From an uncultured Candidatus Saccharibacteria bacterium (GTDB taxonomy: Bacteria > Patescibacteriota > Minisyncoccia > Phycocordibacterales > PALSA-1337), in NCBI GenBank assembly GCA_964367745.1, contig CAYIYK010000004.1, forward strand, positions 449 to 64,448: DNA of 64,000 bases, given 5' to 3'. This document shows positions 5,692 through 54,746 of this stretch, piece after piece. The stretch's first letter is position 1, and every line of letters starts with the position of its first letter. The notes below the pieces were generated by a model, which ran no database searches, was not told where the DNA came from, and saw nothing but the letters and a program-made list of their open reading frames with translations. The translations under genes and the position numbers were made by a program.

Positions 5692-5693
5692 TA

Positions 5694-33538: not shown

Positions 33539-36500
33539 CTATTTTTGCAAATTCACCTTCGCTCTGGTTAGAGGTCCAAAGAATCCTGAAGCTGGTTTGA
33601 TACCATTTGCTATTTGATATCTTATCAAAGCGGCTTTTGTTGCTGGACCGAAGTATATTGATTCATTACCTCTTGAACCTATTCCTGAGCTAGATATTGT
33701 ATAGCCTTTTGTATTCAAGAATACCTGTAATTGTCTAACATCTGAACCTGATGATCCTAGAGTTAATGATCTAGAGAATGTATATCCTATTGTTGTTGAA
33801 GGTACACTAGATGTTACTGGAGCAGATGGAATCGATACTGTGCCAGTCGAACTATATAGAGAATTCACGATTGACATAGTTTGAGTATCCAATATTCCAG
33901 TTCCAACAATTCCCTTTGCAGTCTGGAACCTAATCAAAGCTGCTCTTGTTGCCGGACCGAAGTATGTCGATTCATTTCCTCTAGAACCTGCACCAAAAGT
34001 TGATACTGCGAAACCTTGATTATTCAAGAATACCTGTAGCAATCTAACATCATCTCCAGTGGCAGTAATAGAGAGTGATCGTACAAATGTCGCTTTTGGT
34101 GCAGAACTTGATGAACCCCCAGATCTACTACTTCCACTTCTACTTGAACCTGAAGATGTAACAGTACTTTGATTCTGATTTGATACAACTGGTGGAGCAA
34201 GTTCATCTATAACCTCGTAAGTTGAGAATCCAGGAACAGTGAATACAAGAGTATTATTGGTATAAGATACTATTGTACATTTATCACATGCCACACCATC
34301 CCTCATAATCTTCGGCTTAGCCGCTGTTATGTTATACAAGGTAATAGTAGCGGGTTTGTTCAATTCTGGAATATTTGATGAATCTAAGTAAACCAAACGA
34401 TTTGAGATATTAAGATTTGAATCAATATCAAGAGATTCACCTGTTGATTTAATCAATGAGTAATTACCTGAATTAAAGTTTACTTTTCCTTGAGAATTTC
34501 TCAATTCAATATCGCTAATAGAATTCAGATCTAGAGATGAAATATCATTTGAGTGAAACTTAGTTAATCTCGGCAATGGACATCCTTTCTTATTTACTGC
34601 AACTTTATCTTTGGTATTAGGACACTTATCACCATCGTTTGGCACTCCATCAGAATCACTGTCTGACTGAACTGATAGCTGGTTTCCAACTGAAATATTT
34701 ACAACTGCGTCTGTCTGATTTGCATTTCCTTTAACATCTATACACTTTATATATATAAAGTTAAGGCCGGTTGAAAGGTTTGTAATATTTGCACCATGTG
34801 AATTATTTGAAGATGTAAATAGATTTGGCATAGATGCATAAGGTATACCAGAGCCACTACTCCACTTACATACAGCTGATTCATCAGTAGTTATGTTAAG
34901 TTTGGCTGAAAAAGTACCTGAAGTAACATCAATTACTTCTCTCGGAGTCGTAATAATTGGAGCAGTAACATCAACTTGATTCACTACTAAATTCGTAGTA
35001 GTAAACATTTTATCAGAAGATAATTGGATTCCTCCCAAAGCGTTTTTCGATTTAACTCTAAAATGGTATGTAGTATTTGGAGATAGATTGGTCAACGTCT
35101 GACTATGGAATGATACAGGGTTCGATACTAGTGATGTTGAGTTTCCATATGCAGATGTTAGTCCGTATTCAATTTGAGTATCTGATACTTCATTTGTACT
35201 CCAAGAAATCACTGCACTAGAATCATTTACTGACGATACAGATATTGAACTTATTATTGGAGTAACAACACTTGGATTTGATATAACTCCATTACATCCA
35301 TACGCTCCGATATAAGTACCATTTTCTCCACCACGACACAATGGTGACGAAGACAGAGGTATCAGACCATCATCAGAAGTAAATGGAACTCCGTCTGGAC
35401 CGAGCGGATTTGAAGGATTTGAAAGTTTCGGATCACCTCCGTTTATACCATTTTTTTCTGAACCTCCAAAAGATAGCAGAGTAGTAGATTTTGCTGGATA
35501 TCCTTGTGCAGCTGGTCCTGCTATATAGTTATAATCTGCAGTTACTTCAGGAGAAGGTAGACCATCACCACCTCTAATCGAGTACCAGCCTCTATCAGAA
35601 TCTGAATTTGCACCAGTCAAATTTCCAGATTCTAGGAATATATTATTTTTGATTACACTACCAACTGGATTACCGTGACCACTTTTGCCGATTACAAAGT
35701 TATGGTTTGAAATACGAGCACTCTTATAAAATGTATTATTTGTAACTATTGTCTGTGGTCTAGTGAAGCTTCCTGACATCTCAACATTTACGAATATATT
35801 ATTTCTTATAAGTAGACCCTTGTTTTCCATTGCAGGCACATTAGTCAATTGTTCTTCTACTGAAGCCAGTTGTTCATCAATATCTTTAATAAAGTTATAC
35901 TCAAATATAGTATTGTTGATTGACTGTTCTGGTGTACCAATACTTGTCATTAGAGTATCGTACATGTCGGATGTACCTGAACCCATTGCAAACACAGTAC
36001 CTATTTTTGGTAGTTCAAAATCTTCCCATCTCGGTGAATCTCTAAATATGTTATATCGGAAGATATTATTATCACCATAGAAAGCTATCATTCTCCAACC
36101 ATTCATCTTTTCCCATATATTTTTTTCTACTATGTGATTTGAACCTTGAATTTGTAGGCCTTTACCAGCAAGATTACTTAGAGTGTTTCCTTGAATTAGA
36201 CAATTGTCTGGTTGATATCCGCCAGATGAAAGCATTATTATTCCCCATAGACCATTCTTTTCTGCTCTATTCATATATATTGTTGCTGCTACCGGTCCTT
36301 CAGTAAAAACAGTATTTGATGGATCTAGAGTGAGAACCTTATCCGTTACGGATATAACACGTTTTGTCTCATATTTGTATGGAACACCTCCGTTATTATC
36401 ATGATTCTGTATTTGTTTATTTATATTTGACCCTATATAGATAGACATCCCTGGTTCAAAACCTGCTGCAATAAATCCTCCATTTGGATTAGTTATCGTC

Positions 36501-39500
36501 TTTGTTGGTCCATCAAAATACATATTTTTAGAATATATGTATATACCGTCTCTAATAGTGTTATCTATTATCTGACAATTATCAGCAGGCGGTTCTACAG
36601 TAATATGTCCCTGATCAAGTCCCACACCGTATCTTGTAATATCAAATCCCTCAACTCTTACGTATGGATTCTTAATTCTAAAACCTTTCATAGTAACAAT
36701 ACCTTGAGCTTTAAATGTTACGTATTTACCAGACTGACCAACACTAGCAGTTTGCACATGTTCTGGATATACACCAGCAGTTATTAAACATGTCTCACCA
36801 GCCTTAATTACATTTGCACATTTTTGAATAGTTTTGAAAGGTGAAGATTGCGTACCCGGATTCGTATCACTACCAGTATTAGATACGTACAAAGTATTAA
36901 GTGAAGGTGTGATAGGTGGGACCGTAGGTGGAGGATTTGATCCAACTCCACTACCTGAACCTGTAGCAAAGACCTTTGTTGGATCACAACTATACGCACC
37001 TATATCAACACCACTTGAACCCTTAGCACACAATGGGGATCCTGGTAGAGGCTTTAGTCCATCATCGATAGTAAAAGGTAGACCGTCTGGACCAAGCGGA
37101 TTCGCGGGATTAGTAAATTTAGGATTACCACCATTTATTCCATTTGCTTCTAGATTATCAACCTTGAAGCCTGTCTTACCTGGATAACCTAAACCAGCTG
37201 AACCCGCCACGAAGTTATAATCTGCAAGAACCCCAGGTGTAGGTTTACCGTCATCTCCTCTTACAGAGTACCAGCCATTATCATTCTGTATTTCATCTTT
37301 AACTCCAGAATCCACAAAAGCATTATTTTTTATCTCGCTACCGACCGGATTACCATGTGCACTTTTTCCAATTACAAAGTTTTGATTTGATATTCTAGCA
37401 CTCTTATAGAATGTGTTATTACTCAATATTGTCTGTGGTCTTGTAAAACTTCCTGACATTTCAACATTTATAAATACATTGTTTCTAATGTATAAACCCT
37501 TATTTTGTAGTGCTGTACCAACAGATGCAGCTTCCTCAACTGAGGCTAGTTGTTCATCAACATCTTTTACGAAGTTATATTCAAATACATTATCATTTAC
37601 TTGTTGATCAATGGCTCCCGTACTAGTCATCAGAGTATCGTACATATCCCATGATCCAGAACCAAGCGCAAATTGAGTACCGGGCTTTGGCAATTGGAAT
37701 CCTGGCCAGCGTGTAGAATCTCTAAAAATATTATAACGAAAAACATTGTTACTTCCGAAAAAAGAAATCATTCGCCATCCGTTCATACGCTCAAAAGTGT
37801 TCTTTTCAATAACATTATTCAAGCCAGCAATTTGCATACCTTTACCTGCTAAGTTGCGTAATGTGTTACCCTGTATCAAACAATTGTCAGGTTGACCACG
37901 TGATGTTGATGAATTGAATATAATACCCCATACACCATTCTTTTCTGCTTTATTAACATATATTGTAGAGGTAACTGGACCTTCACTAAATACTGTATTA
38001 GAAGGATCGAGTGTTAATGTGGTATCGGTAACTGCAATAACTTTCTTCGTTTCGAACTTATACGGAACAGCACCGTTGTTATCGTGATTTAATATTTGAT
38101 TATTGATATCAGAAGCTATATATATAGTCACACCAGGAACGAAACCAGCAGATATAAAACCACCTGAGGGGTTTGTAATGGTTCTATTCGCTCCGTTGAA
38201 AGTAAAGTTGTTTGAACTAAGATAAATACCATCGCGAATAGTATTGTTTATTATCTGAGAATAATCTCCTTCTGGTTCTACAGCGATGTGTCCTTGATCA
38301 AGACCGACATCGTATTTAGTAATATCAAATCCTTCGATTCTAACGTAAGGATTCTTAATTCTGAAACCTTTCATAGTAACAGTACCTTGAGCCTTGAATG
38401 TTACATATTTACCATTTGCACCACTATTTAATGTCTCGACATGTTCCGGATAAACACCTGCGGTAACTAGACATGTTTCTCCAGCCTTAACTATATTTGC
38501 ACACTTTTGAATTGTCTTTAGTGGAGAAGATTGTGCACCGGTATTTGTATCGTTACCTGAACTTGAAACATAGATAGTACCAGTTGTAGGAACAACAACT
38601 GGTGGTTGATTTGTAGGTGGGTTATTGTTTGGAGGTGTTACCGATATTCCACCTGTACCTGAATTCCCTGTCGCAAAAACTTTATTTGAATCGCAACTAT
38701 ACACACCAATGTCAACACCATTCAATCCCTTTCCGCAAAGAGGTGATCCTGGTAAAGGTTTCAAACCGTCATCAGTAGTAAAGGGAATATTATCTGGACC
38801 ATCTGGATCGTTTACATTTTTAAGCATTGGATCACCACCATTTACTCCATTCTTTTCGCAGAAACGGAAGTTCTTATTTACACCACTAACACAACCATCT
38901 GCTCTTTTTGGGGGATATCCAAGTGATGCAGGTCCTGATACGAAGTTGTAATTTGTCACATAAGTATTTCTAATACTTGTATCGAGATCACTTGTTAATT
39001 TAAGATATTTATATATACCACTTTTATATGCTGAATAACTAGGTGAGACATAGAAATCACTTTCACTTGATAAAGCCTTGGTTTTTGCTGTTGGACGTCC
39101 ATTACCATCTGTGTAGCCATTTGCCACGAGATCACTCATTATTCCAGCGGCGATTGGTGTTAATGATGTCTCATTAGCTGCAACCTCATTTGTTACATAG
39201 AACCTCATAACTTCCTGTCCGATTCCTGCCCCAGAGTTAGAGTAAAATCCCTGTGTATCACCACCCCTTCCACCACCTATGAATGCGTTGCTGATTGCTG
39301 TCATCCTAGAAGAATCACCCCTAGTTAAACTGCCACCTGACACGAGTCCGTCCTGTGTGTATGCTGTCTTATAAAATGTATTATTTTCAAAAGTTATACC
39401 AGGTACACCTAGGTTCCAGTTATTACCAATATTTGCAAAAACATTTCTTCTAAAAGTAAAGTCGCGGAAATCTGGCATGAGTCTTGGGTTAACCAGACTA

Positions 39501-41218
39501 CCACCACTATTCATTTGACCCATTTGATAACCTGTTTCAGTTATTGCTAAAAGATTTTCAATCCAATTTTCTTCGAAAAGCATATTGAATGATCTACCTC
39601 CATTATCTGCGAAAGTTTGTACGAAGTCAGGGTGATTCCCAGTACCCGATACTGGAATAGAATTCCTAAAAACATTTCTATAAAATACGTGATCTTGACC
39701 AAAAGGACGTACGAGATCCCAACCACCAGCCTCTTCAAAAACATTGTTTTCAAATCTACTTCCAATACCATCGGTTGTAAGGTAATTAGCATTGATCCTA
39801 CTTACTGTATTTCCTTTAAATAGACAATAATTACCAGTAATTCCTCCGTCTCTCGAAGATGAATAGAATGATATACCTGCAACTCTTTTTACTCCGTCAT
39901 GTATTGTATTGTTTAAAACCTTACAATAATCTCCACCTTTTGTAACACCAATATATTGTTGATTTAAACTTGGACCAGTAATGTCGAAACCATCAACAGT
40001 CACATAAGAATTTCTAATATCAAAACCATTTACAACTACCTTGCCATTTGCCTTGAAAGTGACACGATTCGAATCACTTGTTCCATTCTTCTTTGTCATT
40101 ACTTGCTCTGAATAATCTCCTGCACTAACAAGACAAGTGTCACCTGCTTCAGCAACATTTGCACATGCTTGAATTGTTGGATATTCTTCAGGAACACATT
40201 TTGTACTTGCTCCAGCACAGCCAGCACTTACATTTTGACTAACAACAGGTGATACGATTTGAGAAATTACAGCTGGTTTAGTAACAGCAGGTGCAGTTGA
40301 AACTGGAGTAACTGCATTATTAATAGTCTGAGTATTAGTAGATGATGTAACACTTGAAGCTGCACTACCACTCAATGAGTACAGATCAGAAACTTCTTGA
40401 GAAGTAACTGCGCGGTTATAAATACGTACATCGTCTATATCACCAGAATAGAAATTGGGAATATTGTTCCATCCAATTCTTAGAGGATCGTTAACTGAAG
40501 TATTCAATAATCCACCAGCACCACTAACACTTCCAATTTGATTACCGTTTACATAGACCGTTGAAGATGGATTACTGTAAACAACCACAACATGATTCCA
40601 ACTACCAGTTGATAGTGTGTTAGCAGGAGTCATTTGTGAAAATGCTACTCCACCACCGCTAGAACCACCAATTCTCCATATTACAGATAGAGATGTACCA
40701 TTTGAACCAACCTCAAAAAGTCTTCCAGTTCCCCATTTAGTTATAAAGGGTTTTGAACCTACTGATGGCTTCACCCAGAAAGATATTGAAGCGGAATTTA
40801 AACCATTTAAAGCATTAAAATTTGGAACATCTACATATTGATTTGTTCCATTTAGTTTTAGAGATCCCGAGCCAATTTTCCCAGGTACCCAAGTAGAATT
40901 CCCTCCTACTATTGTTCCATTGTTTGTTCCAACTGAATCAGTAGCAGTAGTTCCGGAAGTTTCGTCTAGTTTAAAATGAGATACTAGACCGTTTGTTAAG
41001 GTGGCACCTACTTGAGCGTGTTGTAGATTACTATATGACGCTACATCAGTCTTTGAAAAAATTTCTTCTATCTTTTTATCTAATAAATTGGTAAGTGCTA
41101 GTGTTGCTATGAACATACAACCAATCAATGAAAACGCATAAAGAACATTGACTGGTTGCTTTAATATTTTTTTGTATTTTTCCATATAGTTATGGAATAA
41201 TTTTAACACACATACCAT
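33539..41218 (-). CDS. Giant surface protein (2559 aa): N-terminal LamG domain, two tandem roughly 500-aa right-handed beta-helix units, FN3 domain, thrombospondin-type-3-like acidic repeat and two C-terminal peptidoglycan-binding domains
   Basis: LamG signature (WNHVVVVY...DDVRIYNRAVTSQEVSDLY). A duplicated block LKTIQKCANIVKAGETCLVTAGVYPEHV... / FKTIQKCANVIKAGETCLITAGVYPEHV.... FN3 (ISWSTNEVSDTQIEYG...TTYHFRV). DSDSDGVPNDGDKCP. Two DVRxLQVFLN...FGPAT PG-binding repeats. Confidence 0.85.
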   Translation of the reverse strand: MVCVLKLFHNYMEKYKKILKQPVNVLYAFSLIGCMFIATLALTNLLDKKIEEIFSKTDVASYSNLQHAQVGATLTNGLVSHFKLDETSGTTATDSVGTNNGTIVGGNSTWVPGKIGSGSLKLNGTNQYVDVPNFNALNGLNSASISFWVKPSVGSKPFITKWGTGRLFEVGSNGTSLSVIWRIGGSSGGGVAFSQMTPANTLSTGSWNHVVVVYSNPSSTVYVNGNQIGSVSGAGGLLNTSVNDPLRIGWNNIPNFYSGDIDDVRIYNRAVTSQEVSDLYSLSGSAASSVTSSTNTQTINNAVTPVSTAPAVTKPAVISQIVSPVVSQNVSAGCAGASTKCVPEEYPTIQACANVAEAGDTCLVSAGDYSEQVMTKKNGTSDSNRVTFKANGKVVVNGFDIRNSYVTVDGFDITGPSLNQQYIGVTKGGDYCKVLNNTIHDGVKRVAGISFYSSSRDGGITGNYCLFKGNTVSRINANYLTTDGIGSRFENNVFEEAGGWDLVRPFGQDHVFYRNVFRNSIPVSGTGNHPDFVQTFADNGGRSFNMLFEENWIENLLAITETGYQMGQMNSGGSLVNPRLMPDFRDFTFRRNVFANIGNNWNLGVPGITFENNTFYKTAYTQDGLVSGGSLTRGDSSRMTAISNAFIGGGRGGDTQGFYSNSGAGIGQEVMRFYVTNEVAANETSLTPIAAGIMSDLVANGYTDGNGRPTAKTKALSSESDFYVSPSYSAYKSGIYKYLKLTSDLDTSIRNTYVTNYNFVSGPASLGYPPKRADGCVSGVNKNFRFCEKNGVNGGDPMLKNVNDPDGPDNIPFTTDDGLKPLPGSPLCGKGLNGVDIGVYSCDSNKVFATGNSGTGGISVTPPNNNPPTNQPPVVVPTTGTIYVSSSGNDTNTGAQSSPLKTIQKCANIVKAGETCLVTAGVYPEHVETLNSGANGKYVTFKAQGTVTMKGFRIKNPYVRIEGFDITKYDVGLDQGHIAVEPEGDYSQIINNTIRDGIYLSSNNFTFNGANRTITNPSGGFISAGFVPGVTIYIASDINNQILNHDNNGAVPYKFETKKVIAVTDTTLTLDPSNTVFSEGPVTSTIYVNKAEKNGVWGIIFNSSTSRGQPDNCLIQGNTLRNLAGKGMQIAGLNNVIEKNTFERMNGWRMISFFGSNNVFRYNIFRDSTRWPGFQLPKPGTQFALGSGSWDMYDTLMTSTGAIDQQVNDNVFEYNFVKDVDEQLASVEEAASVGTALQNKGLYIRNNVFINVEMSGSFTRPQTILSNNTFYKSARISNQNFVIGKSAHGNPVGSEIKNNAFVDSGVKDEIQNDNGWYSVRGDDGKPTPGVLADYNFVAGSAGLGYPGKTGFKVDNLEANGINGGNPKFTNPANPLGPDGLPFTIDDGLKPLPGSPLCAKGSSGVDIGAYSCDPTKVFATGSGSGVGSNPPPTVPPITPSLNTLYVSNTGSDTNPGTQSSPFKTIQKCANVIKAGETCLITAGVYPEHVQTASVGQSGKYVTFKAQGIVTMKGFRIKNPYVRVEGFDITRYGVGLDQGHITVEPPADNCQIIDNTIRDGIYIYSKNMYFDGPTKTITNPNGGFIAAGFEPGMSIYIGSNINKQIQNHDNNGGVPYKYETKRVISVTDKVLTLDPSNTVFTEGPVAATIYMNRAEKNGLWGIIMLSSGGYQPDNCLIQGNTLSNLAGKGLQIQGSNHIVEKNIWEKMNGWRMIAFYGDNNIFRYNIFRDSPRWEDFELPKIGTVFAMGSGTSDMYDTLMTSIGTPEQSINNTIFEYNFIKDIDEQLASVEEQLTNVPAMENKGLLIRNNIFVNVEMSGSFTRPQTIVTNNTFYKSARISNHNFVIGKSGHGNPVGSVIKNNIFLESGNLTGANSDSDRGWYSIRGGDGLPSPEVTADYNYIAGPAAQGYPAKSTTLLSFGGSEKNGINGGDPKLSNPSNPLGPDGVPFTSDDGLIPLSSSPLCRGGENGTYIGAYGCNGVISNPSVVTPIISSISVSSVNDSSAVISWSTNEVSDTQIEYGLTSAYGNSTSLVSNPVSFHSQTLTNLSPNTTYHFRVKSKNALGGIQLSSDKMFTTTNLVVNQVDVTAPIITTPREVIDVTSGTFSAKLNITTDESAVCKWSSGSGIPYASMPNLFTSSNNSHGANITNLSTGLNFIYIKCIDVKGNANQTDAVVNISVGNQLSVQSDSDSDGVPNDGDKCPNTKDKVAVNKKGCPLPRLTKFHSNDISSLDLNSISDIELRNSQGKVNFNSGNYSLIKSTGESLDIDSNLNISNRLVYLDSSNIPELNKPATITLYNITAAKPKIMRDGVACDKCTIVSYTNNTLVFTVPGFSTYEVIDELAPPVVSNQNQSTVTSSGSSRSGSSRSGGSSSSAPKATFVRSLSITATGDDVRLLQVFLNNQGFAVSTFGAGSRGNESTYFGPATRAALIRFQTAKGIVGTGILDTQTMSIVNSLYSSTGTVSIPSAPVTSSVPSTTIGYTFSRSLTLGSSGSDVRQLQVFLNTKGYTISSSGIGSRGNESIYFGPATKAALIRYQIANGIKPASGFFGPLTRAKVNLQK

Positions 41219-43441: not shown

Positions 43442-43476
43442 TATGTTATTTTATCATAACTTAATTACCAACAATA

Positions 43477-46400
43477 CTACCTCCCCGCCACCTTCCCTCT
43501 AGTCAAAGGCCCAAACAACCCAGAAGCAGGTTTAATGTTGTTAGCAACCTGGTATCTGATAAGGGCGGATTTGGTAGCAGGGCCAAAGGTTGTAGATTCT
43601 AGTCCTTTAGATCCAGCTCCTTTAGTCGATACTGTAAATCCTTGTGAGTTTAGGAAGATTTGTAGTTGTCTTACATCTTCTCCTTTGGTACCTAGTGATA
43701 GGTTACGTTTGAATGGGTATGGTGAGGTTTTTGTAGTGGTAGGTGTATATACTAGTGGATATGTCTGTATTGTCTTTGTAGTGGTTGTAGGGGTACGAGA
43801 TATAGATGAACCTCCTCCGCCTCCACCTCCTCTAGATGGTGTAGATGTGACTACCGTTGGTATCTTTGTGAATGTAGCTACTACTACCTTGTCTGAAGTT
43901 GAGTTTACAGTACAACTACCCGTTCCTGAACATACTCCCCCAGTCCATCCTCCAAATGTTGATCCTGAGTCTGGTGTAGCTGTTAGAGTTAGTGTTGTAG
44001 AGTCATTTACCACCTCTGAACAATCACTACCACAAGATATACCTGTACCTGACACTGTACCTGTTCCTGAGCCTAGTGGAGTTACTGATATTGTATATGT
44101 TACAGGTGGTGTTGTACCTTCGATGATTGAGTATGTAGAGAAGCTAGGTACAGTGAATACTAGGGTACCGTTTATGTATGAGATGATTGTACATGTAGTA
44201 CATTCTACTCCGTCTTTAATTACCTTTGGTGTCTTTGCTGTAAGGTTGTATAGCGTTACTGTAGCTCCTTTGTTTAGTTCAGGCATACGAGAAGAGTCTA
44301 GAGACAGAGTTCCTTTGGCTATAGATATATTTGCATCTAGGTCTAGAGGTTCGCCTGTACTCTTTACTAGAGTAAGTGGTGTAGAGTATGAGATCTTACC
44401 TAGACTGTTCTGTATATCAAATGAAGATACACTGTTTAGATCTGCATTAGCTAGGTTAACTGATGTTGTGAACTTTGTTGTTAGAGGTAGAGCACAACCA
44501 TAGTTGTTTACTGTTACTCCTGTAGGTGTATATGGACACTTGTCTAGGGTGTTTGATATACCGTCAGAGTCGGAGTCACTAATGACAGGGGTTGGGGTGA
44601 CTGAAGGGGTTGGAGTGGGAGTGACTACAGTTGTAACAGTATTTGAAGATGAATTATTTTGACCTGAAGTGTTGTTAGAATTTTTCTTTATAAGAACATA
44701 TACACCGAATTTTGATGAAGTGTGTGGTCTATTATAATCATGATAAGAACCACTTAGGTCTCCTTTATAAGAATCAACAGAAGAAATATTTATTGGTATA
44801 TTTATACTTCCTCCATTGTATGTACCACTAAGTACAGGTGTGCCGAAATAATTTTGTACATCTCTAACTTCATAAGAATCACCGGAAGATAAACGACTTG
44901 AAACATCTACAGGAATAGTGCTCTGACCTGACCAATTCATAATAGAGATGTAAGATTTATTTGAATCGTATTGATTATTTTTAATGACAATCAACGGGGT
45001 ACTTGGTAGAGTCCCTGTATAAGAACCATTCAAATCAAATCCAGAATTTTTCCAAGTAGAGAATATACAATCGCGAGAATAGGTCTTACATGCACTAACA
45101 TATGTATAAGTTCCAGGTAGAGTCATGAGTAGAGGAAGGCCGTAATTATAAGTATTATTATTGAATGAGTATTTAGAGATATCACCAGTCTCTTGCGCTC
45201 TAACTTCAAAGTCTTTGTAGAAGAGATTGTTTGTTACGGTCATCTTATCCCACCAGAAAGCTTGTAAACCTTCATAGAAATAGTTGTTAGAAATTTCTAC
45301 GTCTTGATTCAACTTATTATTGTAATAAAGCCTAAACATACCATTCTCACCTGATATATTATTTCGAATTTTTATACCAGCAGCAGACGTAACTCCTCCT
45401 ACAAGCGCTTCATTATTAAAGACAACATTGTCTTCAAAAGTCATATTTAAAACAGGTGCAGCAGAACCATAAGCTTGAATGCCGTAAAAGAAAGCAGAAA
45501 ATAGAATATTATTTTTTACCAGAAGAGTGGGACTGCTATTTTGTAAATATAGATTATGACTATGTAATCTATCAGGTGCATCATAACCATTTCTAAAAAT
45601 TATATTTCCGTATATCTCAGTATTAACATTTTGTGGATTCACATAAATACCATTACCTACAACATCATGTATTATTAAATTTATAATTTTTACTCCATTA
45701 GTATTAATTAGATTAACACCAGAAGCAATTGGTATATCAGTTGGTGAGGAACTTGATTGAGTAGATACCCTCTTAACTGTAGGACTTGCAGTTATTTCAA
45801 AATCTCTATAAGTCACATAGCCTCCATTTTCTTGTGTTATTCCACCCTGAACAACAACCGATTCACTATTATAGGGTTTGATAACTATACTATTACCAGA
45901 AGACCCCATTAGTCCTGTCTTGAAATTACCACTATATGCTCCGCCACGTAAATAAATAGTATTACCCGGTTTAATATATTTATTAGTATTATTTAAAGCT
46001 GTTTGCAAATCCCACGGATTATTTATTGTTCCGTTTCCCTGTGATGATCCAGATGGTGAGACAAACCATTCTGTGGTATTCGCAGGTGGAAGTGAGACTG
46101 CGGTAAATTCGGCCGTTATGGTTGTGTTTGCTGAAATTATAACAGTACAATTTCCTACTCCAGAGCATTGTCCTCCCCATCCAGAAAATGTTGATTCGGA
46201 TGTCGGTGTAGCACTGAGGGTAATAGAAGTTCCAGAGACTGATACTTGAGAACAACTTGATCCACAGGAAATATTACCGCCGGAAATCGTTCCTGTACCG
46301 GTGCCAGATTTCTGTATAGAAAGAGTATAAGTAGAAGGTGTTGGAATAGGGTTAGGAATGGGGGTTGGGGTTGGAGTAGGAGTAGGGGTGGGAGTTGTTG

Positions 46401-47121
46401 GTGGATTATTAGTTGTACCGGAACCTAGATTGTAGAGTTCTGTGATTTCACTACTAGAAAGCGAGCGGTTATAAATTCGGAGATCGTCAAGAGAACCTTT
46501 AGTATTACTACTGATACCACTCATACCACTTCCGATCTTGAATCTTGGTTGTATCGGCTGACTACAAAAAACTGTAGGTCCAGTAGAAACTTGGACTCCG
46601 TCGATATATAAATATGAATTAGTACTATCCCAAGTATTGACGATATGACTCCATTTGTTAATCAAATTATATGTATATATACCAGAACGGAAGGGGTTAT
46701 TATTAGTAAACATATGCATAATAACTTGATCGGCCGTGTAAAAAACACTTAAACATACATTTCCTGATGATCCCATTTCCTGACCAACAAACATCTGGCC
46801 CGCAGTTGAGCCCGAACTATTAACCCAAAATGAATAGGCACCACTACTACCGTTTGTGGCCATTTGATTTTCAATGGTGATTCTGTCATCTACCCCATCA
46901 AGAAGAATTGCTCCAACTCCTACCTTGCCTGTGGTCTGTGTTGGGCCACCAGCTAGCGTTCCAGGATTCTGTCCTGTAGAGTCTAAGCCTAGATTAGATG
47001 GATCATCAAAAGTGAACCTAGAAACTAGACCTGAATTTAAATCTATATTTTGTGCTTTAGAAAAATTTATACCAAACAATAGTAAAGGTAATATCAATAA
47101 AAACTTATATTTTTTATACAT
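43477..47121 (-). CDS. Giant surface protein (1214 aa): LamG, Pro-Thr linker, InlB-B-repeat-like domain, beta-helix region, TSP3-like motif, second InlB-B-repeat-like domain and C-terminal peptidoglycan-binding domain
   Basis: Signal peptide. LamG (DDLRIYNRSLSSSEITELY). TYTLSIQKSGTGTGTISGGNISCGSSC...FSGWGGQCSGVGNCTV. DSDSDGISNTLDKCP. C-terminal DVRQLQIFLNSQGF...FGPAT. Confidence 0.85.
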   Translation of the reverse strand: MYKKYKFLLILPLLLFGINFSKAQNIDLNSGLVSRFTFDDPSNLGLDSTGQNPGTLAGGPTQTTGKVGVGAILLDGVDDRITIENQMATNGSSGAYSFWVNSSGSTAGQMFVGQEMGSSGNVCLSVFYTADQVIMHMFTNNNPFRSGIYTYNLINKWSHIVNTWDSTNSYLYIDGVQVSTGPTVFCSQPIQPRFKIGSGMSGISSNTKGSLDDLRIYNRSLSSSEITELYNLGSGTTNNPPTTPTPTPTPTPTPIPNPIPTPSTYTLSIQKSGTGTGTISGGNISCGSSCSQVSVSGTSITLSATPTSESTFSGWGGQCSGVGNCTVIISANTTITAEFTAVSLPPANTTEWFVSPSGSSQGNGTINNPWDLQTALNNTNKYIKPGNTIYLRGGAYSGNFKTGLMGSSGNSIVIKPYNSESVVVQGGITQENGGYVTYRDFEITASPTVKRVSTQSSSSPTDIPIASGVNLINTNGVKIINLIIHDVVGNGIYVNPQNVNTEIYGNIIFRNGYDAPDRLHSHNLYLQNSSPTLLVKNNILFSAFFYGIQAYGSAAPVLNMTFEDNVVFNNEALVGGVTSAAGIKIRNNISGENGMFRLYYNNKLNQDVEISNNYFYEGLQAFWWDKMTVTNNLFYKDFEVRAQETGDISKYSFNNNTYNYGLPLLMTLPGTYTYVSACKTYSRDCIFSTWKNSGFDLNGSYTGTLPSTPLIVIKNNQYDSNKSYISIMNWSGQSTIPVDVSSRLSSGDSYEVRDVQNYFGTPVLSGTYNGGSINIPINISSVDSYKGDLSGSYHDYNRPHTSSKFGVYVLIKKNSNNTSGQNNSSSNTVTTVVTPTPTPSVTPTPVISDSDSDGISNTLDKCPYTPTGVTVNNYGCALPLTTKFTTSVNLANADLNSVSSFDIQNSLGKISYSTPLTLVKSTGEPLDLDANISIAKGTLSLDSSRMPELNKGATVTLYNLTAKTPKVIKDGVECTTCTIISYINGTLVFTVPSFSTYSIIEGTTPPVTYTISVTPLGSGTGTVSGTGISCGSDCSEVVNDSTTLTLTATPDSGSTFGGWTGGVCSGTGSCTVNSTSDKVVVATFTKIPTVVTSTPSRGGGGGGGSSISRTPTTTTKTIQTYPLVYTPTTTKTSPYPFKRNLSLGTKGEDVRQLQIFLNSQGFTVSTKGAGSKGLESTTFGPATKSALIRYQVANNIKPASGLFGPLTRGKVAGR
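43500..44546. repeat. Copy 1 of a roughly 1.05-kb segmental repeat (3' end of the giant-protein gene 43477..47121)
   Basis: About 95% identical overall to 55182..56233, with a roughly 530-bp core (about 44015..44546) that is essentially 100% identical. Confidence 0.9.
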
Positions 47122-47152
47122 GTCACTATTCTAACATGTAAATAAATAGAAA

Positions 47153-48088
47153 TTATTGTTGTTTATCCTCACCCATCTTCATCTCTTGCATTTTAGCTAT
47201 AATGTCATCAAGTTTTCCTTGCATAATACCGTAAATATTACTCCATGATTCTTTTATTCTATGATCAGTCAACCTATCTTGAGGAAAATTGTAAGTTCGA
47301 ATCTTTTCTGATCTATCAGCAGTACCGATTTGATCCTTCTTATTAGCATTAAACTTCTTTGCTTCTTCTTCCTCTTTTATTGCTGAATACTTTGCTGACA
47401 AAATAGCCATAGCTGTCTCTTTGTTAGCTGATTGACTACGCTCAGCCGTTGAACGGACATCAAGACCTGTTGGAATGTGTACTATTCTCACCGCCGTTTC
47501 TACTTTGTTAACATTTTGCCCTCCCTTACCTCCTGAACGTGAAGTTTCTATATGGAGGTCAGCTGGGTTCATCTCAAATTTAACTTTTTTACGTAATGGC
47601 AAAACAGCCACGGTTGCAGTAGATGTATGAACACGCCCCATCTTCTCTGTTGCTGGAACTCTTTGTACTCTATGAACTCCTGTTTCATATCTGAGCTGTG
47701 TATATACAGTTTTTCCTTTTATTTCTAGAGTAAGATCATCTATAGACTTTGTAGACCATCCTTGTGACTCTGCATATCTATCGTACATTTCATAAAGTTC
47801 ATGTGCAAAAATATTTGCTTCATCTCCACCAGCTCCCGCACGAATTTCTAGGATAATTTCTGTAGGGTATTCTATTTCTTCTTTTTCTGAATCAACTATC
47901 ACCTTAATCTGATTTTCTGTATTTTTCTTTTGTTCAGTAATGATATCAAGATCTGCTTGAGCAATCTCCTTCATACTAGGGTCATTTTCAACCATAGAAA
48001 TAATATCAGCTTCATCCTTTAAAAGCTTTTCATATATTTCAGCTAGATATGCTGTTTTGTGATTTTTCTTATATTCTTCGAGATTCAT
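47153..48088 (-). CDS. prfA: Peptide chain release factor 1
   Basis: GGQNVNK motif and PAT tripeptide (RVPATEKMGRVHTS). Confidence 0.85.
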   Translation of the reverse strand: MNLEEYKKNHKTAYLAEIYEKLLKDEADIISMVENDPSMKEIAQADLDIITEQKKNTENQIKVIVDSEKEEIEYPTEIILEIRAGAGGDEANIFAHELYEMYDRYAESQGWSTKSIDDLTLEIKGKTVYTQLRYETGVHRVQRVPATEKMGRVHTSTATVAVLPLRKKVKFEMNPADLHIETSRSGGKGGQNVNKVETAVRIVHIPTGLDVRSTAERSQSANKETAMAILSAKYSAIKEEEEAKKFNANKKDQIGTADRSEKIRTYNFPQDRLTDHRIKESWSNIYGIMQGKLDDIIAKMQEMKMGEDKQQ

Positions 48089-48376
48089 TTATGCCTTCTT
48101 TGTAGAAGTTTTGGCATTTGCTTTCTCAGTAGACTTTGTTTGTCTTGACTTGAACTTTTCAACACGTCCTGCACTATCAAGTGTCTTTTCTTGGTTAGTA
48201 TAGAAAGGGTGTGATGAACTAGAGATTTCTACATGGTATGCAGGGTATTCTTTACCATCAGTAAACTTAACAGTTTCCTTTGTTTTAATTGTTGATGAAA
48301 TTAGAAATTGAACTCCGTTTGAATTATCAACGAATACTACTGGTCTATATTCCTTTGGGTGAATGTCTTTCTTCAT
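48089..48376 (-). CDS. rpmE: 50S ribosomal protein L31 (type B, non-zinc form)
   Basis: [15 protein letters not shown]...HPFYT, lacking the CxxC pairs. Confidence 0.85.
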
Positions 48377-48410
48377 AAGTTATTTAATATTTGATATAAA
48401 CAAGACTTTA

Positions 48411-49757
48411 TCATAGTCCTTGCAATGGGTCAATCATGGTTCTTTGTATATTATCTGCCTTTAACATAACCTGGTTTCCATAAGAAGTATTCACATTTCC
48501 TGAACATGATCTTCCTGAATAGTACTTACAAGCGGCATTTCTCTCTGCAGTATAACTTCCGGCTTTGGCTCCCAAGTCGGTAAGGAACATAGATGAAGCC
48601 ATAAATGCATGTTCTGGATTCCAAGGATTAGGATTCGCTATATTTAAGGCTGAAGCAATTCTATCTTTAAATAGCATCCAAGTAGAAGGGATAAACTGAG
48701 CTGGTCCCATGGCACCTCCATAGCCACCGGCTGAAGGTATAGGGCAAGAGACGAGAGTCTTTGTCGGATCTTTTCCAAGCGCACCAGTAATCTCTAAGAA
48801 TGGCCCAACATCTCTACTTGGTTTCATTACATTTGGAAACGTCGTTCCACTTTTAATACTTATACCTGCTCCGGTATTTGTATCTGTTAAATAACATGAA
48901 CCAACGTTCTTACCCAAAGCAGATTCTTGAGTCAAAATAGCCAAAAGGAAAGCGGGTCTAATTCCTGTAGATTTTTGGGCTTCTTGAGCATACTTCAATG
49001 CTTCACCGAATGGAATTGCGGCTGAATCTCTTAGAGAGAATAGTGCCGCTTTTATTTGAGCAGCTTTCGCTTTCTTTTGAGCCAGCTCTTGGGAATATGT
49101 AATCTCATTACTCTTACTTATACTCAACAATCTCTGTTTTTCTTTTTCGTTTATTTCTATATTCTTTTTTTCAGTTTCAATAGCAGCTCTGGCGTCTGAC
49201 TCTTGATTCTTCCTTTTATTTAAATTATCTTTTTCTGTCTGAGTCTGGGCTTTATCGCTTCTAATATTTTCAAATGTAACCTTCAGAGATTGTTGAACTG
49301 AATCAAAATTGTCTACATCGATAAAAACCTGTGTAAGGTTCTCTTTTGACAATACAAACTCTGCAAAAGAAATGGCATCTAGTTCATTATTTTTTCTCAT
49401 TATTTGGGCCAGAGTCTCTTTTCCTCTATTTATATGTCCATCCAAATCTTCAATCTTAGCCTGTTTATTATTTATGTCTTTACCAAGACTTTCAATCAAA
49501 AGGTTCTTGGCACGAATATTTAATTGTGCTGCTTTTATTTTTGTATTTAAAATTAAAATATCTCTAGAGATAGAAGCTGTTTGATTCTTTGTATCAGCAA
49601 GTATTTTTTCTGTTTCCGCTTGCTCTTTTTCAACTTGGGCAAGCTCAGCTCTTAATCTTGCTTCTTTTTGATCAGTAGTTTCATTTGACTGAGCAAATAT
49701 GTGAATAGGAAAAAGAACTGAAATTGAAATTAATGTCAAAAACAGAATTTTTCGCAT
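48411..49757 (-). CDS. Secreted coiled-coil protein with a C-terminal lytic-transglycosylase-like (SLT/MltB-type) domain; EnvC/PcsB-like architecture
   Basis: Signal peptide, about 230 aa of heptad-rich coiled coil, then a GAMGPAQFIPSTW motif region. Confidence 0.65.
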   Translation of the reverse strand: MRKILFLTLISISVLFPIHIFAQSNETTDQKEARLRAELAQVEKEQAETEKILADTKNQTASISRDILILNTKIKAAQLNIRAKNLLIESLGKDINNKQAKIEDLDGHINRGKETLAQIMRKNNELDAISFAEFVLSKENLTQVFIDVDNFDSVQQSLKVTFENIRSDKAQTQTEKDNLNKRKNQESDARAAIETEKKNIEINEKEKQRLLSISKSNEITYSQELAQKKAKAAQIKAALFSLRDSAAIPFGEALKYAQEAQKSTGIRPAFLLAILTQESALGKNVGSCYLTDTNTGAGISIKSGTTFPNVMKPSRDVGPFLEITGALGKDPTKTLVSCPIPSAGGYGGAMGPAQFIPSTWMLFKDRIASALNIANPNPWNPEHAFMASSMFLTDLGAKAGSYTAERNAACKYYSGRSCSGNVNTSYGNQVMLKADNIQRTMIDPLQGL

Positions 49758-49795
49758 TTATATATTGTAACACAATTAGAAAACGGAACGATAGA

Positions 49796-50455
49796 TTATT
49801 TCTTTGCTTCAGCAGAATCTTCAACTGGAGCTTCTCCTTCTTTAGCTTCTTTTCCTTTCTTTGTAACTTCAATAGCTGACATATCGATAGGTTTAACTTC
49901 ATCTATTTCATCTTTTGCTTCAGAAACTGATGCGATGATTTCTAGAGGTCCAGAAACTAGAGTTACTCCTGCACCAAGCTTTATATCCTTTGCTAGAATT
50001 GTACTTGAGAAATCTACAAGTGATGAGATATCTACTTTCAATTCATGAGGGAGGTCTCTTGCTCCAGCTTCGATTTCCAATTCTCGAGCCACTTTAACTA
50101 GAATAGCACCCTTATCCTTTACAGCTGGTGATACACCTTCAAATACTAGAGGGATATTTACTTTAACCTTCTTTCCCTTTTCAATTACATAAAAATCAGC
50201 GTGTCGTGGAGCACCTGTTACTGGGTGAACATCTATATCATGTATCAAAGCTTCGTGTTCAGTATTACCTTCTTTTAGAATAATTATTGATGATTCACCA
50301 GCCTTTTTATAAGCTTTAATGAATTCAATCATAGAAACTACAACAGAAGTTGATTTCTGCTTTGGACCATAGAAAACTGCAGGCATTTTGCCCATTTCTC
50401 TTAGAGTTTCTGGCTTGATCTTCAAATCTCTTGTTTCAGTGTTTAATGTAATCAT
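49796..50455 (-). CDS. rplY: 50S ribosomal protein L25 / general stress protein Ctc form
   Basis: L25 N-domain (RDLKIKPETLREMGKMPAVFYG) plus Ctc-type C-domain and an acidic tail. Confidence 0.85.
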   Translation of the reverse strand: MITLNTETRDLKIKPETLREMGKMPAVFYGPKQKSTSVVVSMIEFIKAYKKAGESSIIILKEGNTEHEALIHDIDVHPVTGAPRHADFYVIEKGKKVKVNIPLVFEGVSPAVKDKGAILVKVARELEIEAGARDLPHELKVDISSLVDFSSTILAKDIKLGAGVTLVSGPLEIIASVSEAKDEIDEVKPIDMSAIEVTKKGKEAKEGEAPVEDSAEAKK

Positions 50456-50548
50456 GTTCAGACTATTATATACAGAATTAATAAAAAGGCAAGAAAAAAC
50501 CTGTTTTTTAGTATTTTAGTCCAAAATATACTAAAAAATACCTGAAAA

Positions 50549-50665
50549 CTACATTGCTACGTAATTCATTATAAGATAAGTAGCAATAGCATTTGCTACT
50601 ATAGTTATAATCATGATTGCGTATACTGATTTTGGTAATTTTATCTTTACTTCTTCTTTTGCCAT
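50549..50665 (-). CDS. Possible 38-aa single-TM micro-protein
   Basis: ATG...TAG ORF MAKEEVKIKLPKSVYAIMIITIVANAIATYLIMNYVAM, 5 nt downstream of the 65-aa ORF. Not supported beyond ORF structure. Confidence 0.2.
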   Translation of the reverse strand: MAKEEVKIKLPKSVYAIMIITIVANAIATYLIMNYVAM

Positions 50666-50670
50666 AAATT

Positions 50671-50868
50671 TTAAATGAAATAATAAATTATTAATCCTGT
50701 TGCAACTAAATTTAGAAAAAATATAAAAAGTAGAACACCCTTAGATTGTGATTCATCTTTTATAATCCCCGTTTTAATCAACCAAGCAGTTAAAGCCCCG
50801 TATTGATTGACATTTTGTCTCATTTGACCAAAACCTATGTTATCCTCTTCAAATTGAACATTCGACAT
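50671..50868 (-). CDS. Possible 65-aa small membrane protein
   Basis: ORF 6 nt downstream of fba with a C-terminal TM helix. Confidence 0.3.
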   Translation of the reverse strand: MSNVQFEEDNIGFGQMRQNVNQYGALTAWLIKTGIIKDESQSKGVLLFIFFLNLVATGLIIYYFI

Positions 50869-50874
50869 AAAAAA

Positions 50875-51732
50875 TTATTTAATATTATTGAATAATTTCA
50901 ACTTCTCTACTACGACCTTTTGCATTGCCTCCCTTGCTCCTTTCAAATATTTATAAGGAGCAACTTCATCTGGATCTTCAGAAAGTGATTTCATCAAACC
51001 AGACTTGAATGCAACTCTCAACTCAGTATTTATATGTATTATAGAAATACCAGCTTCAATTGCATTCCTTATATCTTCATTCGAATTCCCAGATGCACCA
51101 TGGAGAACGAGTGGTGTTTTTACACTGTCTGCTATTTCCTTTATCCTTAAAATATTTAGTGCCGGCTCTCCTCCTTTTACTATACCATGAACATTACCAA
51201 CTGCAGGAGCAAGCATATCCACACCAGTAGAATTTACAAAATCAACTGCCTCTTGCACTTCAGTAAGTCTTCCTACACCTTCTGGAACTGAATCTAGAAG
51301 TTTTGAAGACTTACCTATAAAACCTATTTCTGACTCTACGATAATATTAGGATTAACACTTCTAGCATATTCAACACATTGTTTTGCAATTTTAATATTT
51401 TCCTCCATTGGCAATGCTGATCCATCATAAATCACAGAATCATATCCAGCATCTATAACTTCTTTAACTTTTTCAAAAGTATAAGTATGATCGGCGTTTA
51501 GATAGACTTCCTGACCAGTTGATTCTCTGTAAGCGTGAACCATAGCTACCAATTCGTTTTTTCCAATAAAATCTCTTTCACCTTCTGATGCACCAATAAT
51601 AACTGGTACATTCAATTCTTTTGCACCAAGTACAACCGCCCAAAAACCGTCACTGTTTGAAATATTAAAATGGCCAACTGCAACCTTTTTTCTTTTTGCT
51701 TCTTCCACGCAATCTTTAAGTATTTTTTTCAT
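50875..51732 (-). CDS. fba: Class II fructose-bisphosphate aldolase family protein
   Basis: Class II aldolase motifs (VAVGHFNISN, His-rich zinc site LHGASG). Confidence 0.85.
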   Translation of the reverse strand: MKKILKDCVEEAKRKKVAVGHFNISNSDGFWAVVLGAKELNVPVIIGASEGERDFIGKNELVAMVHAYRESTGQEVYLNADHTYTFEKVKEVIDAGYDSVIYDGSALPMEENIKIAKQCVEYARSVNPNIIVESEIGFIGKSSKLLDSVPEGVGRLTEVQEAVDFVNSTGVDMLAPAVGNVHGIVKGGEPALNILRIKEIADSVKTPLVLHGASGNSNEDIRNAIEAGISIIHINTELRVAFKSGLMKSLSEDPDEVAPYKYLKGAREAMQKVVVEKLKLFNNIK

Positions 51733-51750
51733 GATATAATATTAACACAT

Positions 51751-52761
51751 ATGTTTGATAAAAATATAGATTTCTTGGCAATTGGAGATATTACTACTGA
51801 TGCTTTTATTAGATTAAAGGAGGCGAAAGTTCACTGTAAGATAAATGATGAGGATTGTGAGATATCGATGCGCTTTGGAGACAAAGTTCCTTTTGAATAC
51901 GTAAAGATAGTTAAAGGGGTTGGTAATTCTGCAAATGCTGCTGTTTCAATAGCGAGACTAGGCATAAGATCAAATCTACGTTCTGCACTTATGACACAAG
52001 TTGGTGCTGATGAAAATGGTAAAGATTGTTTAGCAAATCTAGTGAAAGAAAAAGTAGATACACGCTATGCAAAAACTCATAAAGGTCTATCTACCAACTA
52101 TCACTTTGTACTTTGGTATGAATCAGATAGGACAATTCTAATAAACCATACTGAATTCCCTTACAAATTCCCTGAGATCAGGAAGAATCCAAAATGGATT
52201 TATCTTAGTTCATTGAGTTCAAATTCAAAAGACTATCACAAAGAGATTTCTGATTATCTAAATAAAAACCCGGATGTAAAACTTGCTTTTCAGCCTGGAA
52301 CTTTTCAGATGAAATTGGGGATTAAAGAATTAAAAGATATATACAAGAGAACTGAAGTTTTCATTTGTAACTTCGAGGAAAGCCAGAGGATACTACATTC
52401 AGATTCAAGAGATATAAAAGTTCTACTATCAGAAATGCATGCAAATGGACCTAAAATTGTAATTATTACTGATGGACCAAAAGGTTCGTATATGCTTGAT
52501 GGTGAACATTTCTACTTCATGCCGATTTTTCCTGATCCAAAGCCACCAGTAGAGAGAACCGGTTGTGGTGATGCATTTGCTTCGACTTTTGTTGGTGCTA
52601 TGATGCTTGGTAAATCACCTCTTGAAGCTCTAGTCTGGGCACCTGTTAATCCTATGTCAGTTGTTCAGTATGTTGGAGCCCAAGAAGGACTGCTTGATAA
52701 AGAAAGTATAGAATGGCATTTAAAAAATGCACCGGAAGACTATAGACCTCGAGAAATATAA
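51751..52761 (+). CDS. PfkB-family carbohydrate/nucleoside kinase
   Basis: N-terminal GD motif (LAIGDITTD) and C-terminal GCGDAFASTFVG anion-hole motif. The start is at MFDKNIDF; the longer ORF overlaps fba. Confidence 0.8.
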   Translation: MFDKNIDFLAIGDITTDAFIRLKEAKVHCKINDEDCEISMRFGDKVPFEYVKIVKGVGNSANAAVSIARLGIRSNLRSALMTQVGADENGKDCLANLVKEKVDTRYAKTHKGLSTNYHFVLWYESDRTILINHTEFPYKFPEIRKNPKWIYLSSLSSNSKDYHKEISDYLNKNPDVKLAFQPGTFQMKLGIKELKDIYKRTEVFICNFEESQRILHSDSRDIKVLLSEMHANGPKIVIITDGPKGSYMLDGEHFYFMPIFPDPKPPVERTGCGDAFASTFVGAMMLGKSPLEALVWAPVNPMSVVQYVGAQEGLLDKESIEWHLKNAPEDYRPREI

Positions 52762-52764
52762 AGA

Positions 52765-54668
<1,904 letters not shown>

Positions 54669-54701
54669 TTTAATTATATAAAATTATTTGATAGACAAAC
54701 A

Positions 54702-54731
54702 AAAAACTGCCACTCGGCAGTTTTTTGTTTT
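54702..54731. terminator. Bidirectional intrinsic terminator between the convergent LOG and RRM genes
   Basis: AAAAACTGCC-ACTC-GGCAGTTTTTTG. Confidence 0.7.
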
Positions 54732-54746
54732 AAGACGGGTAAAGTA

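Follow-up and report, generated by a model that had tools for sequence, protein, structure and literature searches.

A C-terminal cassette shared by two giant surface proteins of an uncultured Saccharibacteria bacterium: a predicted Nup98/S59-like autopeptidase domain, a peptidoglycan-binding domain and probable homogenisation by gene conversion

Surface-protein paralogues are well known to undergo concerted evolution of a C-terminal module that they share; in Helicobacter pylori the bab genes have a C-terminal region of more than 90% identity and a variable ligand-binding region, and conversion homogenises the shared parts (PMC4552749). Diverse heads on one shared, non-covalent wall-anchoring module are found in the CWB2, SLH, LysM and GW protein families, and the cell-wall protein CwpV of C. 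difficile cuts itself by an N-O acyl shift at a Thr residue (PMC3256870). Among autoprocessing domains, ZU5, GPS and the Nup96/98 domain have been joined in one superfamily, and autoprocessing of the ZU5 type has been proposed for large bacterial surface proteins with adhesion and glycohydrolase modules (Zhang et al. 2012, PMC3482391). The locus described here lies in a 64-kb stretch (64,000 nucleotides of contig CAYIYK010000004.1, hereafter the window, to which all position numbers refer) from an uncultured Candidatus Saccharibacteria bacterium, in which two giant minus-strand open reading frames (ORFs), gene A (43477..47121, 1214 amino acids, aa) and gene B (55158..60539, 1793 aa), end in a common 3' cassette, its copies likewise named A and B. 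It is considered probable that the cassette is a genuine paralogous C-terminal unit of two exported surface proteins, which would combine an S59-type autopeptidase domain with a wall anchor and which has been homogenised by gene conversion. Its product is most likely a self-cleaving domain plus cell-wall anchor, not an adhesin-variation switch.

Self-BLASTN of the window aligned the 3' 1.07 kb of gene A (43508-44577) with the 3' 1.07 kb of gene B (55189-56264) as a direct repeat on the minus strand, with 95.08% identity over 1077 columns (45 mismatches and 4 gap openings), an offset of 11,681-11,687 bp and a protein identity of 92.4% (A848-1214 against B1425-1793), in agreement with the first-pass annotation, which had reported a 3' block of about 95% identity in both genes at a spacing of 11.7 kb. 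The stretch of about 530 bp that it had put at essentially 100% identity corresponds in the per-site alignment to a perfect run of 535 bp (44012..44546 in A, 55699..56233 in B, both minus strand), the longest in the global alignment, which spans the end of a TSP3-like motif, the entire autopeptidase-like domain and the first third of an InlB B-repeat. At its gene-5' border there is a 31-bp edge with 9 mismatches (71% identity), beyond which similarity is gone; on its gene-3' side there are approximately 504 bp with 47 differences (90.6% identity), including a 6-bp indel in a Gly run. When the 53 differing columns were scattered randomly over the 1077, a run of at least 535 was not obtained in any of 200,000 simulations (P < 1e-14). 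The tract contained no differences at 140 synonymous sites (dS 0), whereas the 3' part of the cassette had a dS of 0.20-0.26 and a dN of 0.05-0.065, and the resulting dN/dS of about 0.25 indicates that both copies are under purifying selection. The window as a whole has a G+C content of 35%. The remainder of the two genes had been described as unrelated, which holds at the nucleotide level, where there is no homology upstream of the cassette, but not for the proteins: the N-terminal LamG regions of A and B are 27-35% identical, and an internal InlB B-repeat of gene A is 52% identical to that of the cassette.

The step from no differences in 535 bp to approximately 9% divergence beside it argues for conversion acting on an older duplicate rather than for one recent duplication, such that a young gene-conversion tract appears to overlie an older pair of paralogous modules. 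Comparison with other lineages was possible through gene B orthologues carrying the cassette in L004 (a Candidatus Saccharibacteria metagenome-assembled genome, MAG), L008, L016, L021 and L022, of which the last three belong to a related species, here species X (L013, L016, L019, L021 and L022; assembly GCA_010026765.1). Copies A and B were closer to one another than to the L004, L008 and species X cassettes in the tract (100% against 91.6-94.2%), with corresponding values of 90.6% against 81-89.3% in the 3' part. The earlier suggestion had been of either very recent gene conversion or segmental duplication; conversion is borne out by the tract (dS 0 against 0.20-0.26), and a single recent segmental duplication is not. 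That such a duplication copied the cassette between the genes, all differences being ordinary later divergence without conversion, is regarded as highly improbable. It would gain some plausibility from the lack of gene A at the same position in species X (L013), which could mean that A, or its present 3' end, is young. However, a single duplication cannot yield 0 differences in 535 bp beside 47 in about 504 bp, and the 3' part of A is as distant from B as the cassettes of different species are from one another. Further, the tail of A matches L004 and L008 and that of B matches species X, a grouping carried by nine clustered sites in the last 21 nucleotides; the other site patterns in the cassette were mutually incompatible, i.e. 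reticulate or mosaic. In the proposed sequence of events, an older module duplication would have diverged by about 9% under purifying selection, and a recent non-reciprocal homologous exchange would then have overwritten 535 bp across the autopeptidase-like domain, with any crossover products losing essential genes and leaving conversion products only.

Species X has no gene A where its release factor and triple-LamG genes adjoin, consistent with either a gain in the window lineage or a loss in the other. This species has approximately 88% nucleotide identity to the window; positions 8212-8355 of L013 (contig RGWU01000044.1) correspond to window 43441-47153, the release-factor gene being followed by the triple-LamG gene after 41 bp; L31 and its neighbours in this contig differ by at least one residue from the window proteins. 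In L004 (11125-12102), the gene B orthologue is followed by a gene for a surface protein with a signal peptide and an InlB B-repeat, not by the block of RRM, LOG and TGT genes, and gene order around the giant genes is thus fluid.

Whether both copies are real was examined with independent contigs, namely L002 and L003 (ERR4405439), L023 (SRR25018358) and L001 (SRR12762276). Contig L002 (99.9% identical to the window) joins the unique head of gene A to the cassette across the junction, L003 (100% identical) holds the last 125 bp of gene A and the next gene, and L023 (99.6% identical) carries the 3' part specific to copy B. Because independent contigs reproduce the A junction, the A tail and the B-specific 3' part, and the gene B orthologues of L004, L016, L021 and L022 have the cassette in place, copies A and B are two distinct loci and not an assembly duplication. 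A narrower form of artefact, in which two copies exist, truly differing at a few tract sites, but polishing of a long-read or curated assembly with short reads mapping to both created the 535-bp identity or part of it, is judged unlikely, and the evidence for it comes from L002. All four mismatches of this contig to the window fall in the cassette, three within the tract (44278, 44254 and 44196) and one at its edge (44011, where L002 carries the copy B allele), even though the other contigs of ERR4405439 match the window at 100% identity (L003, L024, L025 and L026); moreover, the passage of a 64-kb contig through an exact 535-bp repeat implies long reads or manual curation. These variants are either population variants of the cassette or a sign that polishing made the window copies slightly too alike. 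If the three sites are counted as true, the tract is still at least 99.4% identical, and set against 90.6% beside it this preserves both the step in divergence and the inference of conversion. Independent assemblies also show the copy-specific 3' differences, L003 those of A and L023 those of B, and the end of L001 (97.3% identical, from a related strain) 11 bp outside the repeat is as expected if the related strain has the repeat too. Contigs L024, L025 and L026 (ERR4405439, ERR4405440 and ERR4405441) are 100% identical to the window and all end at base 55044, within the RRM gene, which suggests a strain-level branch point or a repeat at that position.

The copies are separated by core genes (47153..55052) for a release factor, L31, an SLT-like protein, L25, a class II fructose-bisphosphate aldolase, a PfkB kinase, TGT, a LOG-like protein and an RRM protein, and the window as a whole is core chromosome, encoding DnaE, DnaG, RpoD, GyrB, PheST, ThrRS and an AddA-like helicase-nuclease. 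Since the repeats are direct, a crossover between them would delete 11.7 kb together with these core genes and would probably be lethal, and it is inferred that only non-crossover, i.e. conversion, products persist. The likeness to babA, babB and babC lies in surface-protein paralogues at separate loci with a C-terminal homology block, the shared parts of which are homogenised by intragenomic conversion. However, the bab genes also share a 5' block, giving rise to chimeric, phase-variable adhesins, whereas genes A and B share the 3' block only, and the shared part in bab is a beta-barrel anchor, as opposed to an autopeptidase-like domain with PG_binding_1.

These features also bear on the suggestion, made in the first-pass annotation, that the repeat is a substrate for recombinational adhesin variation, which was not sustained. 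Programmed variation of this kind, in which the shared block would serve to reshuffle adhesin genes as in bab, pilS or msp2, is very unlikely here. In its favour, RecA-type recombination would find ample homology in an exact direct repeat of 535 bp, the window encodes an AddA-like helicase-nuclease, and cassette variants seem to coexist in one population at the L002 sites. However, as A and B share a single nucleotide block at their 3' ends, exchange within the cassette cannot swap the variable heads, which lack nucleotide homology upstream of it and would remain in place, and a crossover would remove the intervening core genes. No silent cassettes were found in the window; the ORFs scanned there encode neither a recombinase nor a reverse transcriptase and include no invertible element, and inverted repeats of at least 40 nucleotides are absent between 40000 and 64000. 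A diversity-generating retroelement was accordingly rejected, there being no reverse transcriptase domain in the scanned ORFs and the mismatches being of all types, without the adenine-specific pattern of such elements; invertible or shufflon-type switching was rejected for want of inverted repeats and a recombinase within the same scopes.

Along the cassette, the encoded order is a TSP3-like calcium motif, the autopeptidase-like domain, an InlB B-repeat, a Gly/Thr linker and PG_binding_1. The TSP3-like calcium-binding motif DSDSDGISNTLDKCP (44533..44577, minus strand, A 849-863; B 56220-56264) scored 19.6 bits against Pfam TSP_3 (cut-off 25) and directly follows a Pro/Thr linker, at which nucleotide homology between the genes stops. 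The presence of InlB-B-repeat-like and peptidoglycan-binding domains, proposed earlier, was upheld by matches above the Pfam gathering cut-offs: a divergent InlB B-repeat (Flg_new_2, PF18998; 43861..44097, minus strand, A 1009-1087; B 55548-55784) at 31.4-31.8 bits (cut-off 23.6), and PG_binding_1 (PF01471; 43498..43683, minus strand, A 1147-1208; B 55173-55364) at 31.5 bits in A and 29.9 bits in B (cut-off 23), the latter domain also matching the N-terminal domain of PDB 1lbu_A (E 1.8e-4). The Gly run noted in the shared block was likewise recovered within the Thr-rich linker, with 7 Gly in A (43810..43830, minus strand) and 8 Gly in B (55494-55517), which is the site of the 6-bp indel. Sortase (LPXTG) anchoring was considered and rejected, as the A and B proteins end ...FGPLTRGKVAGR and ...FGPLTMKKVTGK, inside PG_binding_1. 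A whole-cassette AlphaFold2 model from a shallow alignment reached a pLDDT of 52.6, with PG_binding_1 the sole region above 70, and a Foldseek search with this model was uninformative.

Between the TSP3-like motif and the InlB repeat lies a beta-rich domain of approximately 130 residues (44116..44508, minus strand, A residues 872-1002; B 55803-56195) that was previously without annotation. It had been noted as a beta-sandwich-like region, and a beta-rich domain is indeed present, for which Nup98/S59-type autopeptidase-like appears to be the more exact description. Loci from other Saccharibacteria, from a Paceibacteria MAG and from archaeal-binned contigs supplied homologues, and in the set of eight the F-S-T-Y at the C-terminal end of the domain is invariant. 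The only recurrent Pfam match was PF04096 (Nup98-96 autopeptidase S59), found in five of the eight at 15.5-24.6 bits and reaching profile position 146-147 of 148 in two. A word search with the whole cassette protein was swamped by InlB-repeat proteins and gave no match with the beta-rich domain alone, and a small family profile placed Nup98 domains as its top PDB matches at an E-value of only 0.3. An exhaustive HMMER search then expanded the domain family to 1647 clusters (50% identity) at E <= 1e-3, and hhalign of a 152-sequence family alignment against human Nup98 730-894 (100% identical to PDB 7f60_C) gave a probability of 96.7% with an E-value of 3.2e-10 over 101 columns. In the corresponding controls, reversed Nup98 gave 0.9% and 30 shuffles at most 4.7%.

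In this alignment, the family sequence V-x-G-F-S-t-Y falls on V-S-H-F/S-K-Y of Nup98, at the site F863/S864, and the cleaved Nup98 structures 2q5y and 1ko6 end at HF. The family motif can be written [G/H/S]-F-[S/T]-x-[Y/F]: across the top 150 representatives, the Phe is preceded by G, H or S in 95, 38 and 25 instances and followed by S or T in 95 and 33. Nineteen of these 150 (approximately 13%, among them P0241, P0293, P0297, P0303, P0304 and P0307) terminate exactly at the motif Phe. In L027 (ERZ964708, 4560-4581) the codons run CCG AGT TTC TAG, with a new gene and otherwise unrelated sequence beyond them, and the stop codon together with the loss of homology at that point indicates that the protein end is genuine. 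The domain lies 101-400 residues before the C-terminus in 104 of 148 representatives, and a PG_binding-like tail is present in 52 of 150. An AlphaFold2 model of the domain from a 35-sequence alignment (pLDDT 92.4) places SFST in a loop between two strands, with the strand after it packing into the sandwich; a Foldseek search with the model returned no significant match to solved structures.

From these sequence comparisons it is concluded that the beta-rich domain is in all likelihood a homologue of the Nup98/Nup145 autoproteolytic domain (MEROPS S59) within the ZU5 superfamily, which includes PIDD, the FIIND of CARD8 and NLRP1, and GAIN/GPS. Self-cleavage is a well-motivated prediction at F994/S995 of A (SF/STY, 44137..44142, minus strand, from the alignment on HF/SKY of Nup98; surrounding residues ...TVPSFSTYSIIEG...) and at F1571/S1572 of B (55824-55829, the same motif), and an aligned homologue in a further giant protein of the window, of 2559 aa, has its predicted site at F2331/S2332 (34223-34228, minus strand). 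Autocleavage takes place at HF/S in Nup98 and PIDD and at SF/S in CARD8 and NLRP1; it requires both Phe and Ser, whereas Nup98 and CARD8 can do without the residue at -2 (PMC3210808). The S-F-S of copies A and B is the form found in CARD8 and NLRP1. These copies differ from the described Nup98 and ZU5 members in belonging to a prokaryotic family that is extracellular, fused to a wall anchor and below the PF04096 cut-off, and for which cleavage is predicted. The family members that end at the Phe have a counterpart in yeast, where Nup116 and Nup100 carry this domain at their C-termini without a cleaved partner.

Among the bacterial ZU5 domains already proposed, the toxin versions lie near the N-terminus of RHS proteins, and a C-terminal CxH thiol motif is described for the superfamily (PMC3482391), whereas the cassette family has F-S/T and leaves approximately 100-400 residues to the C-terminus, in many cases with PG_binding_1 after it. 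CwpV may be taken as the closest bacterial functional analogue, being likewise a cell-wall protein in which enzyme-free self-cutting separates a wall-anchoring part from a functional part, and its two fragments reportedly stay non-covalently associated on the wall. The likeness is a functional analogy only, since fold and motif are unrelated and the anchor is an N-terminal CWB2 rather than a C-terminal PG_binding_1. With respect to the CWB2, SLH, LysM and GW families, the cassette differs in adding a predicted processing domain and a spacer, and in having two copies that are near-identical in DNA.

The cassette follows two different heads. That of gene A (44578..47121, minus strand) comprises a signal peptide, LamG, an InlB B-repeat and a Pel9A-like beta-helix; a protein search with this unique part found no orthologue, only distant Pel9A-like beta-helix proteins of at most 51% identity. 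That of gene B (56265..60539, minus strand) comprises an N-terminal hydrophobic segment, LamG-FN3-LamG-FN3 and a large beta-rich region. A diverged third module ends the gene for the 2559-aa protein (33539..34672, minus strand), with TSP3-like and autopeptidase-like parts (54.7% aa identity) and two PG_binding_1 domains (65-69%), and in total four giant proteins of the window end in PG_binding_1 (A, B, and those of 2559 and 1173 aa). The 2559-aa gene (33539..41218) additionally has a 1.5-kb internal tandem duplication (35355-36868 against 37047-38551, 72% nucleotide identity). A scan for promoters and terminators around gene A gave no more sites than shuffled sequence.

Two paralogous triple-LamG genes (41249-43441 and 60602-62800, both minus strand; 730 and 732 aa) share approximately 76% nucleotide identity over 900 bp and each have internal repeats of about 190 nucleotides; one lies after gene A and the other before gene B, so that paralogy in this region extends beyond the cassette. 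The surface-protein cluster is headed by a gene (62802-63974, minus strand) for a 390-aa protein with Peptidase_S74, a self-cleaving endosialidase intramolecular chaperone, which adds a different type of autoprocessing module to the neighbourhood. A group I intron (Rfam, 64.3 bits, cut-off 50) was found at 222-522 on the minus strand, overlapped by a 115-aa ORF with HNH-like Cys/His motifs (405-752, minus strand), a possible homing endonuclease; there was no rRNA or tRNA match in 1-1400.

Between lineages, the cassette showed far lower divergence at fourfold-degenerate sites than the gene that carries it. Relative to species X, fourfold-site divergence was 54.5% in the unique part of gene B, compared with 11.8% in the tract and 21% in the 3' part of the cassette; relative to L004, the corresponding values were 47.8%, 8.2% and 16.9%. 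Cassette divergence between species is thus 4-6 times below that of the rest of gene B. Among the neighbouring genes, those for the LOG-like protein, TGT, the aldolase and the SLT-like protein diverged by 39-46% from species X, and those for the release factor, L25, L31 and the RRM protein were lower (2-22%). Pairwise cassette distances among four lineages were 8-17% in the tract part and 11-24% in the rest. The codon usage of the cassette was also distinct, with A-ending fourfold codons at 0.57-0.60 as against 0.36-0.40 in the unique parts (chi-square P about 1e-6) and ratios of 21:2 for GTA:GTT and 22:3 for CTA:CTT; the distant cassettes of L005 and the 2559-aa gene were without this bias. 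As a unique signature the A-ending bias was partly upheld, the cassette reaching 0.65-0.73 (mean 0.51, SD 0.085) but 41492-41941 and other segments being similar. Taken together, low synonymous divergence and distinct codon usage mark the cassette as moving or constrained independently of its host genes: recombination takes place among paralogues, and beyond this there is either exchange between related lineages as well or constraint on synonymous sites.

High conservation between species was also seen in the RRM gene (54747-55052) with its upstream sequence (54690-55129), at 95-100% nucleotide identity and 2% fourfold-site divergence, and this block is conserved even where the upstream giant gene differs (L014, L015, L017, L018 and L020). 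Transfer of the cassette and the RRM gene as one block was considered and rejected, because identity dips to 63-86% between them.

The low synonymous divergence could in principle reflect selection on the nucleotide sequence itself, through an overlapping antisense gene (plus strand, 43535..44503 and 55219..56190) or an RNA element that would also explain the identity of the copies. Antisense ORFs of 322 aa (43535-44503) and 323 aa (55219-56190) do cover the cassette and share their wobble position with the sense frame. The antisense frame is stop-free for 341 and 343 codons, against 138 for the next longest among 22 large genes; an NNA codon precedes 10 of the 11 Tyr codons, permutation of synonymous codons gives P about 4e-4, and fourfold-site divergence is low in all lineage pairs. 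However, only copy A has an ATG start; L004, with a cassette conserved to the same degree, has the frame interrupted, and neither L005 nor the 2559-aa gene, both distant homologues, keeps it open. There is no Pfam match, the wobble position shared with the sense frame would barely lower dS, and Rfam finds nothing at the cassette. Elsewhere in the window, a 286-aa antisense ORF (4854-5714, minus strand), also without a Pfam match, lies opposite a bona fide YceI-like gene (4888-5691, plus strand), from which it follows that chance alone gives rise to long antisense ORFs in this genome. The presence of an antisense gene along the cassette is therefore rejected as unlikely, given the missing conserved start, the broken frame in L004 and the lack of a Pfam match, and selection on the nucleotide sequence through such a gene or an RNA element is given very little credence as an explanation of the identity; the frame is probably a by-product of the A-ending codon bias.

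Several observations weigh against the interpretation of the cassette as a conversion-homogenised autopeptidase and wall anchor. All PF04096 scores, including the 18.1 bits of copy A, are below the cut-off of 28.4 bits, and autoproteolysis is predicted from sequence resemblance. The exact 100% identity of the tract could have been inflated by read polishing, L002 differing at three tract sites. The low synonymous divergence between species could be the result of synonymous-site constraint instead of exchange among lineages, the distances being uniformly low and star-like. Finally, the target of PG_binding_1 could be the wall of a host bacterium and not that of the cell itself.

On the interpretation of the cassette as self-cleaving domain plus anchor, the proteins would be exported through Sec, PG_binding_1 would hold the C-terminus on peptidoglycan and the autopeptidase-like domain would cut its own chain between Phe and Ser, such that the large variable head (LamG and beta-helix in A; LamG/FN3 and the beta-rich region in B) would stay non-covalently on a wall-bound stub of approximately 220 residues. 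The fragments of Nup98-Nup96 and of ZU5-UPA remain non-covalently attached after cleavage. A more speculative extension, rather unlikely, is that the cassette is a self-cleaving docking module, in which adhesive or enzymatic heads held by strand complementation would be interchangeable by way of conversion and would be shed or force-released at host contact, and the approximately 13% of the top 150 family representatives that end at Phe would be free heads docking on stubs encoded elsewhere. Through conversion, paralogues would then retain one and the same domain and stub, and those of co-occurring Saccharibacteria would stay alike.

The repeat itself is an ordinary but clean case of concerted evolution of surface-protein paralogues, in a phylum whose cell surface is little known; a literature search found nothing specific on giant, LamG or PG-binding surface proteins of Saccharibacteria. 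What is added is the predicted coupling of a self-cleaving S59/ZU5-type domain to a peptidoglycan anchor, a concept anticipated in 2012 (PMC3482391). The more useful result is one of annotation, namely the placement of the beta-rich domain as a putative and widespread Nup98/S59-like family. If the domain does self-cleave, many giant ‘adhesins’ would be two-piece proteins with their heads held non-covalently, and the size, shedding and host attachment of these proteins would need to be re-read in that light.

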